Assembly: GCA_041677685.1 (NCBI GenBank) | Contig: JBAYPN010000031.1 | Coordinates: forward strand, 1-7,796 | DNA length: 7,796 bases | Reading direction: 5' to 3' | From: an archaeon | GTDB taxonomy: Archaea > Iainarchaeota > Iainarchaeia > Iainarchaeales > CSSED10-239 | In this document: positions 1 through 6,155 of the stretch, in pieces | How positions within the stretch are numbered: position 1 is the stretch's first letter | Layout of the letters: every line of letters starts with the position of its first letter | Notes under the pieces: generated by a model | What the model saw: only the letters and a program-made list of their open reading frames with translations | Told to the model about the DNA's origin: nothing | The model's database searches: none | Position numbers and translations under genes: made by a program

Positions 1-1
1 A

Positions 2-286
2 TATTGTTCTGAAAATAAAATCAATATTGTACAGTTGTTAATGGATTTATACTCTAAAAAATATAATAACTACCCAAAAGATATTGTAAAATTATATGTT
101 AAATATATAAAACCTACAAAAGACTTCTGTTGGTATTTTGGAGTAGACCTAATGTCTAAAAAAAATAGTTTGATTGAAAAATTAGAAAAAGATACAAAAA
201 TTAAGTATAATAATTATATAATTAACAATTGGATTCCTAAAATTAGTAAAAAAATAATTGGAAGGGAATATTATATTACAAAGTGA
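2..286 (+). CDS. Hypothetical protein, 3' end of a CDS open to the left window edge (5'-partial)
   Basis: The frame of track ORF 35..286 has no stop from nt 2 up to TGA 284-286. The TTG at 35 is therefore only the first possible start inside the window. The sequence is rich in Lys/Asn/Ile/Tyr and I recognise no motif. It sits directly upstream of a PEP-utilising mobile-domain gene, so it could be the ATP-grasp (PPDK_N-like) partner, but nothing here shows that. Confidence 0.5.
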   Translation, partial: YCSENKINIVQLLMDLYSKKYNNYPKDIVKLYVKYIKPTKDFCWYFGVDLMSKKNSLIEKLEKDTKIKYNNYIINNWIPKISKKIIGREYYITK

Positions 287-315
287 ATTAGGTGAAACTG
301 TAAGGAGTAATAAAC

Positions 316-633
316 ATGATCTTAAAAGGTATTGTAGCATCTAAATCAATTAAAGGAGTTTCTGGAAAAATAAGAATAATTAATAAGAACAATATTAGTA
401 GTTTTAAAAAAGGAGAAATATTAGTTTCTTATGATACTAACCCTAATTATCTAGTAGCTATGAAAAAATCTAAAGCTATACTTACAGAATCTGGAGGCTT
501 ATTAAGTCATGCTGCAATTGTTTCTAGAGAACTAAATATTCCTTGTATTGTAAATATTAAAAGTATTACTAAAAAACTAAAAAATGAACAGTTTGTAAAA
601 ATTAATTTTGAAAAAGGGGAAATTGAGTATTAA
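316..633 (+). CDS. PEP-utilising enzyme mobile (phosphohistidine swivel) domain protein, stand-alone
   Basis: SD AAGGAG at 302-307 lies 8 nt upstream of ATG 316. The 105-aa product carries the swivel-domain signature ...KGEILVS..TNPNYLVAMKKSKAILTESGGLLSHAAIVSRELNIPCIV..., with TxxGGxxSH holding the phospho-His. This is typical of PF00391-type domains from PEP synthase, PPDK and enzyme I. Confidence 0.85.
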   Translation: MILKGIVASKSIKGVSGKIRIINKNNISSFKKGEILVSYDTNPNYLVAMKKSKAILTESGGLLSHAAIVSRELNIPCIVNIKSITKKLKNEQFVKINFEKGEIEY

Positions 634-2468: not shown

Positions 2469-3278
2469 ATGAACTATTATAATTCTTCAGATTTTAAATT
2501 ATACAAAGGAAATTGTATAGATATTTTAAAGAAACTACCTGAAAATTCAGTAGATTTAATTTTTGCAGATCCTCCTTATTTTCTTTCAAATAATGGTATT
2601 TCTTGTAAAGCAGGAAAAATGGTTTCTGTAAATAAAGCAAAATGGGATGTTTCTTCTGGTTTTGAAAAAGATTTAGAATTTAATTTAAATTGGCTTTCTG
2701 AAGCAAAAAGAGTACTAAAAGATAATGGTAGTATTTGGGTATCTGGAACAATGCATAATATTTATCAAATTGGATATGGTTTTCAAAAACTTGATTATCA
2801 TATATTAAATGAAATAAGTTGGTTTAAACCAAATGCACCTCCAAACCTAAGTTGTAGATTTTTTACACATAGTCATGAAACTTTATTGTGGGCTAGAAAG
2901 GATAAATCTTCAAAACATAAATTTAATTATAATTTAATGAAAGAATGGGATGATAATATAAGTGAAAGTGGAAAACAAATGAGAAGTGTTTGGTCTATAC
3001 CTTTAACTTCTAAGTTTGAAAAGATTAATGGCCCTCATCCAACTCAAAAACCTATAGAACTCTTAAAAAGAATTATTTTATCTTCTACTGATAAAGGAGA
3101 TTTAGTATTAGACCCATTTAATGGTTCTGGAACTACTGGTATTGTATCTAAGATGTATGGTAGAAAATATATTGGAATTGATCTTGAGAATAAATATCTT
3201 GATTTAACTATTAAAAGATTAGATTCTATTAAAAATAAAATTATTGTTACTGAAAGGCAGGGTGCATCTAAGTTTTGA
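2469..3278 (+). CDS. Beta-class DNA N6-adenine methyltransferase, DpnA/MboIC-like, M2 of the R-M cassette
   Basis: The 269-aa product has the catalytic motif IFADPPYFLSN near the N-terminus (nt 2568-2579) and the AdoMet motif LDPFNGSGTTG near the C-terminus, which is beta-class order (PF01555-type). Long stretches resemble what I recall of DpnA (M.DpnIIB): ADPPYFLSN.G, PNLSCR.FTHS.ETLLWARK, GKQM..VW, HPTQKP..LL.RIIL.ST..GD..LDPF.GSGTTG. No SD is present, and a TATA-like aaagatatataca sits ~25 nt upstream of the ATG. Confidence 0.9.
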   Translation: MNYYNSSDFKLYKGNCIDILKKLPENSVDLIFADPPYFLSNNGISCKAGKMVSVNKAKWDVSSGFEKDLEFNLNWLSEAKRVLKDNGSIWVSGTMHNIYQIGYGFQKLDYHILNEISWFKPNAPPNLSCRFFTHSHETLLWARKDKSSKHKFNYNLMKEWDDNISESGKQMRSVWSIPLTSKFEKINGPHPTQKPIELLKRIILSSTDKGDLVLDPFNGSGTTGIVSKMYGRKYIGIDLENKYLDLTIKRLDSIKNKIIVTERQGASKF

Positions 3279-3311
3279 TAATTTTAAATTTTTTGAAAAG
3301 ATTTTAAGGTT
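3276..3311. repeat. Right copy of the 36-bp direct repeat, starting exactly at the M2 stop codon
   Basis: tgataattttaaaTtttttgaaaagattttaaggtt. Its first three bases are the TGA stop of the 2469..3278 CDS. It matches 923-958 at 35 of 36 positions. Confidence 0.9.
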
Positions 3312-3387
3312 TTTCTTTAAAAAGATTAATTTAAAAGCGTATCTACATAATATTTATTTAATACATATAGTATAAAGAGGTAATTTT

Positions 3388-3537
3388 ATGAAAATATTAA
3401 AAGAACCAGAATATAAATACAAGTTAAATAATTGTGACAAAGGTTGTTCTCAAAAATATGGTTGTGATTATTGTGGGCACGATTGTAACAATGATTGTTG
3501 GTATGATTGTAAAAACGATTGTAAAAACGATAAATAA
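3388..3537 (+). CDS. Cys/Asp-rich 49-aa small peptide, candidate RiPP precursor (not in the ORF track)
   Basis: SD AGAGG at 3376-3380 lies 7 nt upstream of ATG 3388, and the stop is TAA 3535-3537. My translation is MKILKEPEYKYKLNNCDKGCSQKYGCDYCGHDCNNDCWYDCKNDCKNDK. It has 8 Cys and 7 Asp, all in the C-terminal 34 residues after a 15-aa Lys/Glu-rich N-terminus. A radical SAM/SPASM gene follows on the same strand. Confidence 0.75.
   Translation: MKILKEPEYKYKLNNCDKGCSQKYGCDYCGHDCNNDCWYDCKNDCKNDK
3481..3531 (+). repeat. Tandem 12-nt coding repeat (gattgtNNNNNN, four units plus a partial fifth) inside the peptide gene
   Basis: The units are gattgtaacaat, gattgttggtat, gattgtaaaaac, gattgtaaaaac, then gat. 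The last two full units (3505-3516 and 3517-3528) are identical. Each unit encodes D-C-x-x. Confidence 0.9.
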
Positions 3538-3549
3538 TTCTTAATGTGA

Positions 3550-3909
3550 TTAACTGTACTCTCAGACTATATATACAATCTAGAAATTAAGCAAGAAAAA
3601 AATAAAATTACTATCTCCACTAAGTATTATGGTTTAGAAGTTGGAAAATGTACTGTAATTTATAAAAATTTAGCTTGGACTATTGATTCAATTAATGTAG
3701 ACCAAAATTTTTGGAATTATAAAATTGGTACAAAATTAATACATAATATTCTTTTTTTAACTAATTATAATTTAAAAAAAAGTATATCTAATAAAAAAAT
3801 AGATTTAATTAATTTTTTTAAAAAAATAGGCTTTAATTCAAAAAAAATAAATAATAAAATATTATTAAAACCTAATTTAAATAAAATTGAAACTAAATTA
3901 AATCCTTAT
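3550..3909 (+). CDS. In-frame open region upstream of the radical SAM CDS with GNAT-like motifs and no defined start codon; either an N-terminal domain of the maturase or a decayed separate gene
   Basis: There are 120 stop-free codons in the same frame as 3910..5043, with no ATG, GTG or TTG among them. The other two + frames close repeatedly across this span. My translation contains ...YGLEVGKCTVIYKNLAWTIDSINVDQNFWNYKIGTKLIHNILFL...KKIDLINFFKKIGFNSKK.... This resembles the GNAT beta4-alpha3 acetyl-CoA loop (degenerate) and the C-terminal FYxKxGF-type motif. Immediately upstream, an in-frame ATG (3544-3546) is followed directly by TGA (3547-3549). Confidence 0.45.
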
Positions 3910-5043
3910 TTGTATAATTTTAAAAAAGTATATCTTAATACTTATAATAATTCAATAGTTAAATTAGATTTCAAAGATGATATTATTAAATTTAAACCAA
4001 AATTAATGAAATTAGATTTTTTAGTTCCAATTTTAACTGATTTTAGATCTATATTTAAATCAATGATTGATAATGGAGAAAGTAATGGAATAAATCTAGT
4101 TACAACATATTCTTGTAATTTAAATTGTAATTATTGTTTTGAAGGCCAAAATAAAGATAAAAGAATAATTAAAGATATTTCTAAATATAATGAAATTTGG
4201 AAGTATATCTTACCAAAGATTACTAATCCTTTTTCAATAGCTTTTTTTGGTGGTGAACCTACACTTAATAAGGATTCAATTTATTTTTTTACTAATAAGA
4301 TAAGAGAATATTCAAAAAAGAAAAAAACAAAATATTATTTAAAAATGATTACAAATGGTACTTTAATAGATAAAGACTTTGTTAATTTTTTTAAACCTAA
4401 TGAATTTTCGCATATTCAATTAACTTTTGATGGTAATAAAAAAAGACATAATGAAGTTAGAGGTTATTATGATAAAATAATAGATTCTATTAAAGAAATA
4501 TATCCAATAACTAGTTCAATAGGGGTAAGATATAATATAACTAAAGATAATTGGACTGAAATTCCAATATTTATTAAAGATTTAACTAAAAAAATACCTT
4601 TAAATGTTCAAAAGAAAGTTTATTTGTCATTAGGATTTATTGATTCAAAAGATGTACAAATATCTGAATTGGATTTAGAAAAAGCAATTAAATCTACTAT
4701 TAAATTAACTAATAATTCAAATATTCGTTTTTTATCAAAACCAACTCAGAAAATTAAAAATTGTCCTGCACAACAAAAAAAAGAAGCATGGATTGATTTT
4801 GATGGTAGGAAATATTTTTGTGAAAGAGTGATTGGTCAAAAAGAATATGAAATAACTGATACTTCTAAATTTGATAATTTTTATCCTAAAGACTGTTTTT
4901 CATGTAAATTATATCCAATATGTGGTGGATATTGTTGGGTTCAAAGTGAACTTAAACAAGATTATTACTTTAATTGTCTTTATTCTAAGGCTATTGCTGA
5001 AGAAGAAATAAAAAAATATCTTTCAAAAGGTGCTAAAAAATGA
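3910..5043 (+). CDS. Radical SAM enzyme with a C-terminal SPASM domain (peptide-modifying maturase type); the true start is probably upstream of the listed TTG
   Basis: The CxxxCxxC motif (CNLNCNYC) is at nt 4114-4137, followed by FFGGEPTL (the GGE SAM motif) and ITNGTLI. The SPASM signature is complete at 4762-4977: CPAQQKKEAWIDFDGRKYFC (C-x13-G-x4-C), then CFSCKLYPICGGYC (C-x2-C-x5-C-x3-C), then a distal Cys in YFNC. That predicts two auxiliary [4Fe-4S] clusters. The TTG at 3910 has no SD, and the frame stays open for 120 codons upstream. Confidence 0.9.
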   Translation: MYNFKKVYLNTYNNSIVKLDFKDDIIKFKPKLMKLDFLVPILTDFRSIFKSMIDNGESNGINLVTTYSCNLNCNYCFEGQNKDKRIIKDISKYNEIWKYILPKITNPFSIAFFGGEPTLNKDSIYFFTNKIREYSKKKKTKYYLKMITNGTLIDKDFVNFFKPNEFSHIQLTFDGNKKRHNEVRGYYDKIIDSIKEIYPITSSIGVRYNITKDNWTEIPIFIKDLTKKIPLNVQKKVYLSLGFIDSKDVQISELDLEKAIKSTIKLTNNSNIRFLSKPTQKIKNCPAQQKKEAWIDFDGRKYFCERVIGQKEYEITDTSKFDNFYPKDCFSCKLYPICGGYCWVQSELKQDYYFNCLYSKAIAEEEIKKYLSKGAKK

Positions 5044-5555
5044 ATATTACTATTACGAAAGATAAAAAACAACATAATTGGAAAAAAATCCATAAAAGAA
5101 TAGTTAAAGATACAAGTTATGAATTTTTAGGTAATTTTACAGATAATACAAAGGATATAACAAACTATTATTGTTATGAAAAAGAAACAAATAAACCTAT
5201 AGGTTATCTCTCTCTTGGTTTTAGTACAGAGTATCATAGGTTTTATGGTATTAACTTTATTGGTATTTTACCAGAATATAGAAGAAAAGGGATTGCAAGT
5301 AAACTATTGTTTTTTGCAAAGAAACATGCAAAAAAAGAAGGTTATCTAAGGTTATTTACAGTTTACAGTACAAGTGAAAGTAATGTTTTTAATTTTAATA
5401 GAAAGCACTGTTTTTCTTCTGAAAGCACATATGTAAACATTCTTTTAGATTCAGGAAAGAGGCTTTATTTTTGTCCTTTTAGTTATTATGATAAAAATCT
5501 TAAGGAGAAGTCAAGTCTTCTTCACACTTTCAAGATAATGTTTTTGAGGTTATAA
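5040..5555 (+). CDS. GNAT-family N-acetyltransferase
   Basis: ATG 5040 overlaps the radical SAM stop (ATGA at 5040-5043). SD-like AAAGGTG at 5026-5032 lies 7 nt upstream. The product contains ...GINFIGILPEYRRKGIASKLLFFAKKHAKKEGY..., which is GNAT motif A (R-x-x-G-x-A/G acetyl-CoA pyrophosphate loop). At 171 aa it is the usual size for the family (PF00583-type). Confidence 0.8.
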   Translation: MNITITKDKKQHNWKKIHKRIVKDTSYEFLGNFTDNTKDITNYYCYEKETNKPIGYLSLGFSTEYHRFYGINFIGILPEYRRKGIASKLLFFAKKHAKKEGYLRLFTVYSTSESNVFNFNRKHCFSSESTYVNILLDSGKRLYFCPFSYYDKNLKEKSSLLHTFKIMFLRL

Positions 5556-6155
5556 CAAAAGAAGCTTACCATAATCTGTAAGATAAAGAAAACCATTCTT
5601 TTCTTCAATAAGACCCTTTTCTTTAAAGTCTCTTATATTATTATATATAGCAGTTCTTCCAAGATTAAGCTTGTCTGAATTTGCAAGCTCTGGAAGAGTT
5701 ATCTCTTTTTTAGAAATTTCTTCTAAAAGATCATAAGCCTTTTTACTAATATCAAAAGAAAGCTTTGGAACAACAACCATTTGGTTTATTTCAGGAGTAA
5801 AATATAAGATTTCTTTAATTTTATTACTTCTAGCATAACATCCTAGCATTATACCTATAGATTTAGGTTTTCTACCAGAAGTAATATCTACATATATTTC
5901 ATTTTCTTCTTCTTTATAGATTTTATCAATATTTATAATAATTTCCTTTGCAATCTCATAAACTTCATAAAGCGTTGTTTTAATTTCTTTAAATTCTATA
6001 TGTTTAAAGGTATTCTTAAGTTTTTCTTTAGTTTGTTTTTGATTATCGTCTGATTGTTTGTCCATTATTAGATATATTGTATCTGGTCCTATTCTTGTGA
6101 TTGCTCCAACCATTGGAGTAAATGAGTAAGTATTTGTTAAAAGTATTTTTTTCAT
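5550..6155 (-). CDS. Csa3-like regulator: N-terminal CARF-like Rossmann domain plus C-terminal winged helix-turn-helix
   Basis: The 201-aa product starts with a beta-alpha-beta pattern (KKILLTNTYSF.P..GAI....PDTIYLIMDK...). It then reads ...IYVDITSGRKPKSIGIMLGCY..., recalling the Csa3 segment ...DLTMGMRMINTLILLG... from memory. The C-terminus looks like a wHTH (ITLPELANSDKLNLGRTAIYNNIRDFKEKGLIEEKNGFLYLTDYGK). An AGGA SD-like element lies ~9 nt upstream of the start. This call rests on pattern recognition only. Confidence 0.55.
   Translation of the reverse strand: MKKILLTNTYSFTPMVGAITRIGPDTIYLIMDKQSDDNQKQTKEKLKNTFKHIEFKEIKTTLYEVYEIAKEIIINIDKIYKEEENEIYVDITSGRKPKSIGIMLGCYARSNKIKEILYFTPEINQMVVVPKLSFDISKKAYDLLEEISKKEITLPELANSDKLNLGRTAIYNNIRDFKEKGLIEEKNGFLYLTDYGKLLLL

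Follow-up and report, generated by a model that had tools for sequence, protein, structure and literature searches.

Radical S-adenosylmethionine (radical SAM) maturases of the CteB/PapB type, which introduce the thioethers of sactipeptides and ranthipeptides, combine a CxxxCxxC motif with a SPASM domain of seven cysteines, carry an N-terminal domain in the position of the recognition element and are encoded immediately downstream of a Cys-rich precursor peptide. The same features are found on the forward strand of the archaeal contig JBAYPN010000031.1, of which a stretch of 7,796 nucleotides was analysed (in the following, the window). Positions 3544-5043 of the window are a single maturase gene for a ribosomally synthesised and post-translationally modified peptide (RiPP), located between the gene of a Cys-X-X-Asp-repeat precursor peptide and the gene of a stand-alone GNAT acetyltransferase. 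Its product comprises a truncated GNAT-fold domain, a domain resembling a RiPP recognition element (RRE-like domain) and the radical SAM/SPASM core. CteB (5wgg) is the best structural match of the full-length model, and by analogy the enzyme may work like the thioether-forming maturases of the CteB/PapB type, from which it differs by the extra N-terminal GNAT-fold domain of ~100 aa and by its archaeal host. The second peculiarity of the gene is its 5' end, where the ATG is directly followed by an in-frame TGA. All evidence on this point is comparative and originates from metagenome assemblies.

A stop codon directly behind an initiator is known from the 'start-stop' minimal open reading frames (ORFs) such as Escherichia coli yecJ and hslR or the AUG-UAA of plant NIP5;1, which are likewise conserved and for which a tuning of expression was proposed; in E. 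coli, start-stops are real ribosome-binding sites (10.1101/520783). The known start-stops lie out of frame within genes or in 5' leaders before an ORF with its own start, whereas the one described here is in frame with and abuts a long ORF without a start codon of its own. With respect to archaea, a review from 2021 names selenocysteine, pyrrolysine and a single -1 frameshift as the only demonstrated cases of recoding, with selenocysteine limited to methanogens and a few other archaea (PMC8211752), and selenocysteine-independent suppression of UGA amounts to just under 1% in Methanococcus maripaludis (PMC9622424). The gene shares with the archaeal recoding of UGA (selenocysteine) and UAG (pyrrolysine) and with this suppression a conserved in-frame UGA in a functional gene. 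In contrast to the selenocysteine and pyrrolysine cases, the UGA stands at the second codon, a position which is variable among relatives and not a catalytic site, and it is not accompanied by an element like the selenocysteine insertion sequence (SECIS). For the A1 protein of phage Q-beta and the decoding of UGA as tryptophan in Bacillus subtilis, near-cognate read-through of a few percent sets the stoichiometry of proteins. There, read-through extends the C-terminus, whereas here, in an archaeal setting, it would be needed for any product.

The window has a GC content of ~20%. The precursor peptide gene ends with TAA at 3535-3537, and 6 nt further downstream the ATG at 3544-3546 (+) is found, which is kept in every relative of the clade. 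It is followed by the TGA at 3547-3549 (+), also conserved clade-wide, behind which the frame stays open for 497 codons (3550-5040) up to the TGA at 5041-5043; in the following, codons and residues are counted from 3550. The first in-frame ATG, GTG or TTG is the TTG at codon 121 (3910-3912, +), used by gene callers as start of the annotated protein of 377 aa. A sequence-only reading had given the same positions for the ATG-TGA, the open frame and the TTG, as well as the 6-nt gap between the peptide stop and the ATG and a fused product of 499 aa (Met + X + 497), and all of these were correct. Its assumption that the 120 start-less codons (3550-3909, +) are coding was borne out by shuffling and by the purifying selection in this frame described below. 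None of 200,000 shuffles of 3550-3909 (16.7% GC) remained open, and the other five frames of this stretch contain between 6 and 21 stops each. The absence of a start codon from the stretch is only mildly unusual (P ~0.08 given the codon usage of the window). Likewise P0002, an intact relative, contains no Met in the corresponding stretch, its own start excepted.

P0002 was found in a search for relatives that covered 5.8 billion proteins. It comprises 486 aa with 47% identity over 98% of the 497 codons and a precomputed GNAT match, and its gene starts with ATG GCA TTA two bases past the stop of a homologous peptide gene (TAA-TT-ATG). A second intact full-length enzyme, P0026 with 481 aa, is encoded behind a Cys-X-X-Asp repeat peptide, and the C-terminal length of the maturase agrees with both proteins. 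The sequence-only reading had suggested examining orthologues for a sense codon behind the start and a continuous ORF; P0002 and P0026 show exactly this, with ORFs of ~480-490 aa. Outside the clade codon 2 is GCA, GTG or AAT, encoding A in P0002, V in P0021 and N in P0022. An exhaustive HMMER search with the N-terminal profile gave 12 proteins in all, P0026 among them, and a profile search of the protein database with the N-terminal alignment had P0022 as sole match, since the clade's own N-termini are absent from all gene calls. The public gene calls for the enzyme are all truncated (377 or 345 aa), by which the GNAT-fold domain becomes invisible in protein databases, and similar genes have probably been missed or filed as pseudogenes elsewhere.

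The sequence ATG-TGA-TTA was determined in at least eight other assemblies from different samples (JGI, ENA, NCBI and Logan). The carriers of the TGA are L005/L006/L086/L178, L177, L179, L180, L181, L182, L183, L175 and L176. The annotated 377-aa protein belongs to a 90%-identity cluster of eight members, and all cluster contigs that reach the junction read TTA ATG TGA TTA. Two of these lineages, L175 and L176, show a marked divergence from the window, with a DNA identity of 89-90% in the N-terminal part and 0.28-0.37 synonymous substitutions per site (dS). In every lineage exactly 497 codons follow the TGA, without any indel. Within the 1.48 Mb of locus sequence analysed, an ATG directly before a TGA that bounds a long start-less ORF was observed in this clade only.

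The window, L175 and L176 are the only three well-diverged lineages that bear the TGA, and the selection acting on the 120 codons was determined from their comparison. The ratio of nonsynonymous to synonymous substitution rates (dN/dS, Nei-Gojobori) for codons 1-120 was 0.27, 0.26 and 0.19 in the three comparisons, while the radical SAM core showed 0.14-0.25. The corresponding ratio of proportions (pN/pS) was 0.23-0.33 in frame (binomial P 1e-5 to 1.5e-3) versus 0.62-1.25 in the other two frames, and the differences fall mostly on third codon positions, for example 8/9/23. When the observed substitutions were placed at random, the frame stayed open in 4-7% of the trials per pair. Non-coding DNA upstream of the peptide gene showed ~80% identity over ~110 alignable bases (read off the alignment) with one indel, compared to 89-90% in the N-terminal part. 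A dN/dS near 1 or accumulating stops and indels, as expected for a pseudogene, were not observed in the 120 codons. Since selection maintains the domain behind the TGA, it must, judged by these substitution patterns, still be translated. By parsimony all three lineages inherited the TGA, and consequently the 120-codon domain was kept by selection while the TGA was present.

Constraint is also visible at the nucleotide level. The block 3541-3597 (+), which comprises TTA ATG TGA and codons 1-16, is practically invariant: only 1 substitution in its 57 nt was found on the tree of the three lineages, compared to an expectation of 10.8 if the block evolved as fast as the remaining N-terminal domain (Poisson P=2.5e-4) and of 5.9 if it evolved as fast as the radical SAM part (P=0.018). 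Across the 1.9-kb alignment, few windows of 60 nt are conserved to a similar degree. The one change of the block, in L175, leaves the amino acid of the main frame unaltered and gives rise to a TAA in the overlapping frame of GTG 3546. A frameshift from the GTG 3546 ORF was considered as a source of the enzyme and is disfavoured by this TAA; a slippery site is not visible either. No known stimulatory motif was found in the invariant 57 nt.

At the same place, TTAAT-GTG-ATTAA (3541-3553) forms a perfect inverted repeat of 5 bp, which is centred on the ATG/TGA junction and too weak for an RNA hairpin. A protein such as the Csa3-type regulator encoded at 5550-6155 might bind to the repeat, and this could be an alternative reason for the conservation of the block.

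The position of the ATG 3544 so near to the peptide stop suggests a translational coupling. Coupling by termination and reinitiation is documented in archaea (PMC6728339), and the spacing resembles the TAA-TT-ATG of P0002. The ATG lies a few codons from the positions of the relatives' starts and has no Shine-Dalgarno sequence of its own, unlike the other internal genes of the window. Initiation near 3544 is favoured over TTG 3910, which shows neither a comparable conservation nor a Shine-Dalgarno sequence. As the most likely route to the enzyme we tentatively propose, from the comparison of sequences, a low-level read-through of the UGA after AUG 3544, coupled from the peptide gene. Ribosomes ending the peptide gene would reinitiate at AUG 3544 and encounter the UGA immediately, and a small fraction would decode it with a near-cognate tRNA without terminating. 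The product would be the 499-aa enzyme at a low, roughly percent level, with an N-terminus reading M-X-LTVLSDYIYNLEIK. The AUG-UGA pair would act as a leaky 'start-stop' attenuator, by which the amount of the Fe-S enzyme would stay far lower than that of its substrate peptide. Two features by which recoding can be recognised are found here, namely an in-frame stop conserved among diverged relatives and purifying selection in the same frame downstream. In a stricter form, the AUG-UGA would be functionally required and the essential maturase domain would be made only by programmed decoding of, or restart after, the UGA at codon 2; we take this possibility seriously without considering it probable. 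If correct, it would be the first archaeal stop-codon recoding independent of selenocysteine and pyrrolysine and, as a leaky start-stop, a new means of setting the stoichiometry of enzyme to substrate within an operon. Altogether, there is a substantial chance of a new mechanism, and the gene is a concrete and cheaply testable candidate for a further mode of translation, be it read-through or a restart after the start-stop.

Several observations weigh against the read-through of the UGA. The RNA around the ATG-TGA forms no stable fold (z=+1.5), so that a stimulatory structure is missing, and a read-through directly after the initiator codon has no documented precedent. A U following the stop codon, as present here, is a strong termination context in bacteria. 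In two of the three comparisons the dN/dS of the N-terminal part was somewhat above that of the radical SAM core. Codon 55 (3712-3714) encodes the Arg of motif A in five of five relatives with a normal start (F-R-N-x-K-I-G), while the window has Trp and both L175 and L176 have Leu at this position. From these two findings some relaxation of the constraint on this domain is possible. Deletions of the same gene in sister lineages show that decay of the locus does occur. A very short recombination tract could have spread the TGA among the lineages; since L176 has two substitutions 4-6 nt upstream of the ATG, there is little room for this. Finally, the sequence would also allow ribosomes to initiate at a near-cognate codon slightly further downstream, and by sequence alone read-through and a non-canonical start are inseparable.

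Such a start just past the UGA, by near-cognate initiation or reinitiation for instance at AUA 3571 (codon 8) or AUU 3586 (codon 13), is rather unlikely, although it is the rival that survives best. The AUG-UGA would then be a landing site for ribosomes, recruited at AUG 3544 itself or from the peptide gene, and the product would have ~485-490 aa. This is consistent with the selection on the N-terminal region and the invariance of the block 3541-3597, with the conservation of both AUA and AUU in all lineages and with the nature of the E. coli start-stops as ribosome-binding sites mentioned before. Furthermore, no beta strand is predicted with confidence before residue 10, so that a start at codon 8 would keep the fold, and P0002 and P0021 begin just 3 residues ahead of the equivalent of codon 8. 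Contrary to this, codons 4-12 (LSDYIYNLE) are identical to the P0022 protein despite five synonymous differences in codons 4-14, which suggests that LSDY (codons 4-7) is translated. Neither AUA 3571 nor AUU 3586 is preceded by a Shine-Dalgarno sequence, and the review cited above (PMC8211752) lists no initiation at codons other than AUG, GUG and UUG for archaea.

According to a further explanation the 5' end is inactivated: the TGA would be a nonsense mutation and the 120 codons a decaying relic, and the cell would produce either a 377-aa enzyme from TTG 3910 or no enzyme. A pseudogene was indeed the working hypothesis after relatives with a deleted radical SAM core and the exchange of Arg by Trp had been found, until it was overturned by the diverged, TGA-bearing L175 and L176. 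In line with a relic, gene callers pick TTG 3910 or ATG 4006, the Arg of motif A is lost, and sister lineages show repeated deletion of the radical SAM core and loss of the peptide gene. Moreover, TTG is a rare Leu codon (10/205), yet it is kept at codon 121 throughout the TGA clade, with TTA in P0002 and CTT in L174. Against this, the three TGA lineages at dS ~0.3 keep a dN/dS of 0.19-0.27 without a stop or an indel. TTG 3910 has no Shine-Dalgarno sequence or extra conservation, lies in a fast-evolving stretch inside the predicted RRE-like domain, into which a start at codon 121 would cut, and the first canonical start varies between the lineages (codon 121, 79 or 106). A relic is accordingly very unlikely, and the same finding of a TGA common to lineages at this divergence disposes of the recent nonsense mutation that the sequence-only reading had offered. 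As an observation in its own right, TTG 3910 is conserved throughout the clade and might serve as a secondary internal start.

An altered code or a dedicated recoding, with the TGA read as Trp (code 4), Gly (code 25) or selenocysteine, is highly improbable at this site. One assembly is labelled 'Patescibacteria group bacterium', and position 2 is small or ordinary outside the clade (A, V, N), by which many residues seem to be tolerated. However, the in-frame codons of the window's other genes (2239) include 0 TGA, 18 TGG and 93 GGN, and TGA terminates four genes, the maturase included. Since the TGA of the maturase overlaps the next ATG as ATGA, it terminates normally in this organism, and no internal TGA was found in real genes at any clade locus. 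Codes 4 and 25 were rejected on the basis of these codon counts and the stop usage, and the other labels and the markers are archaeal. With regard to selenocysteine, no SECIS-like hairpin was found downstream of the UGA, the window has no Rfam match, and selenocysteine is limited to methanogens and a few other archaea (PMC8211752). No tRNA genes were detected in the window, L001, L004 and L005. To our knowledge, a DPANN archaeon is not expected to carry the selenocysteine machinery.

A sequencing or assembly artefact at 3547-3549, as considered by the sequence-only reading, has nothing in its favour beyond the prior expectation for metagenomic contigs and a negligible probability, as the same six bases were obtained in JGI, ENA, NCBI and Logan assemblies, including contigs that differ by 14 single-nucleotide polymorphisms and by ~10%.

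The domain behind the UGA adopts, in the model, a truncated GNAT fold at residues 10-108 (3577-3873, +) with a pLDDT of ~90. Its ~100 residues comprise, in this order, four beta strands, a helix, a strand, a helix and two strands; they lack the N-terminal alpha1-alpha2 arm that full-length GNATs possess. AlphaFold modelling of residues 1-185, based on eight family sequences, reached a pLDDT of 86.5 and a pTM of 0.83, and the best 50 matches of the resulting model in a Foldseek search of the PDB were all GNAT acetyltransferases (E 5e-6 to 2e-4, probability 1.00). A two-sequence profile gave six GNAT structures as top PDB matches, and Pfam Acetyltransf_7 matched with E=0.0019, below the gathering score (18.9 vs 27). 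The GNAT-like motifs pointed out in the sequence-only reading are in agreement with all of these results. Features shared with the GNAT superfamily are the beta4-alpha3-beta5-alpha4-beta6 core and the region of motif A (…VxxxFRNxKIGTKLI…), both of which could be aligned to GNAT structures. Unlike in the superfamily, the motif A itself (Q/R-x-x-G-x-G/A) is not present: the region reads FWNYKIGTKL in the window, i.e. W-N-Y-K-I-G compared to R-N-x-K-I-G in the relatives, or more generally W/L-x-x-K-x-G in the clade and R-x-x-K-x-G outside. The domain may function as a binding module and not as an enzyme. The loss of the motif-A Arg coincides with the appearance of the TGA.

The following residues 115-174 (3892-4071, +) were assigned to the RRE-like domain. 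In the AlphaFold model they form three to four short strands followed by helices (beta-beta-beta-alpha-alpha-alpha type), and they precede the radical SAM core in the place of the CteB-type recognition element: the Foldseek alignment of the full model spans 426 columns of 5wgg, with residue 97 of the CteB chain aligning with residue 179. Since no Pfam match was obtained for this segment, even at E=10, we infer the label 'RRE-like' from predicted topology and position. The sequence-only reading had placed a GNAT fold where a PqqD-like element should be; in the model, the GNAT fold (10-108) is instead followed by the separate RRE-like domain (115-174). As modelled, the GNAT domain is thus an extra module ahead of the recognition element and not its replacement.

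The radical SAM core (4099-4500, +) is of the TIM-barrel type and matches Pfam PF04055 with E=9.8e-13. Its CxxxCxxC at 4114-4137 comprises C189, C193 and C196, which are invariant in 20 homologues, and Foldseek gave matches to CteB and anSME with E values of 1e-13 to 1e-12. The SPASM domain with seven cysteines (4762-4977, +) was located by alignment and has CteB, anSME and SuiB as best structural matches. It follows the pattern typical of two auxiliary clusters, C405-x13-G-x4-C424, C449-x2-C452-x5-C458-x3-C462 and C476. In the alignment of 20 sequences no exchange occurs at C405, C424, C462 and C476, and the conservation of C452 and C458 is 90% or higher; C449 is invariant among the three closest sequences. 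The best NCBIfam matches were geopeptide, TIGR04463 and PapB maturases, with a best score of 103.8 bits against a cut-off of 400 and a PapB score of 94 against 340 (the cut-offs range from 340 to 600). Since all scores, also those for CefB and further maturases, are far below the cut-offs, the maturase represents a separate family and belongs to none of the curated NCBIfam families. In the literature searched, no description was found of the architecture of GNAT fold, RRE and radical SAM/SPASM, of this peptide family or of relevant RiPPs in DPANN archaea. With respect to RiPP biology, the locus adds a small, undescribed archaeal family, which consists of a Cys-X-X-Asp repeat peptide, a GNAT-like/RRE-like/radical SAM-SPASM enzyme and a second GNAT.

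The precursor peptide gene (3388-3537, +) encodes 49 aa, is preceded by the Shine-Dalgarno sequence AAGAGG 7 nt upstream and ends with TAA. The core of the peptide is NCDKGCSQKYGCDYCGHDC, followed by repeated Cys-X-X-Asp units. Homologous Cys/Asp-repeat peptides are encoded directly upstream of P0002 (L002, 222-353) and P0026 (L167, 387-557). The peptides of the window (3433-3534), L002 and L167 share NC(D/N)KGC… and then 4-6 Cys-X-X-Asp units, namely CGHD, CNND, CWYD and CKND, with CSSD repeats in L167. We take these repeats to recall the Cys-X3-Asp motifs of PapA, and by this analogy they likely represent a pattern of Cys-to-Asp thioethers in which the two residues stand closer by one position.

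In several relatives the radical SAM core was lost by different deletions (P0021, P0022, P0025, P0023 and P0024). The core was deleted at least three times with distinct breakpoints (L166, L168-L171, L172/L173 and L174), so that the module of GNAT-like and RRE-like domains remained, either on its own or joined to the downstream GNAT. The latter is the case in P0021, which is present on 9 contigs, one of 291 kb. Two diverged lineages (P0022 and P0025) have retained the truncated form, and this suggests that the module can function without the radical SAM part. In the lineage of P0023 the peptide gene also has no start: the homologue of the peptide core, CDRGCDRKYGNDDCPNDCDYCGHD, is found at 6086-6202 of L173 only in a start-less frame, and the ORF called there (38 aa) uses another frame. 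Since the core homologue is readable only in a start-less frame, the peptide gene of this lineage is dead.

Downstream of the maturase, whose stop TGA (5041-5043, +) overlaps the following ATG (5040) as ATGA, the stand-alone GNAT acetyltransferase of 171 aa is encoded at 5040-5555 (+; Pfam PF00583, E=1.3e-11). This gene adjoins the 3' side in every related locus. Between the N-terminal domain of the maturase and this 171-aa GNAT no significant similarity was found; the two are not close paralogues.

The host is a DPANN (Iainarchaeota-like) archaeon. Members of the cluster are named '[archaeon]' and '[Candidatus ainarchaeum sp.]' at NCBI, the neighbouring gene (5550-6155) encodes the Csa3-type regulator, and the related contig L168, which carries the radical SAM-deleted form P0021, encodes an archaeal-type uL16. 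Nearly identical sequences are filed as 'Patescibacteria group bacterium' (L086, JALNZW010000025.1), as 'archaeon' and as 'Candidatus ainarchaeum sp.'; the gene content is that of DPANN archaea, and the first label is probably wrong, most likely because the contig was misassigned in binning or labelling.

Upstream of the peptide gene, a direct repeat of 45 nt (TTTGATAATTTTAAA…GAAAAGATTTTAAGGTT) with 91% identity between its copies at 920-964 and 3273-3317 brackets a cassette of a Dam methylase, a PD-(D/E)XK nuclease and an N4-N6 methylase. L175 and L176, whose upstream genes are different, carry the repeat motif ahead of the peptide gene as well. Since it is bracketed by a repeat that is also present in these lineages, the restriction-modification cassette looks like an insertion between the phosphoenolpyruvate (PEP)-utiliser genes and the peptide gene. 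A 69-aa ORF (663-872), which terminates with TGA shortly ahead of the repeat, resembles the start of the neighbouring PEP-utilisers mobile domain (316-633), lacks the phosphohistidine motif GGxxSHAAI and is probably a degenerate duplicate.

A protein of 244-277 aa without family match and a PEP-utilisers swivel domain of ~95-105 aa recur as a pair beside the cluster (window 1-633; L166 1260-2391; L168 8853-9964). In L176 (3866-4708) split PPDK_N fragments are found in their place. The recurrent proteins may be a split PEP-synthase-like kinase of the pathway, which appears fragmented in some lineages.

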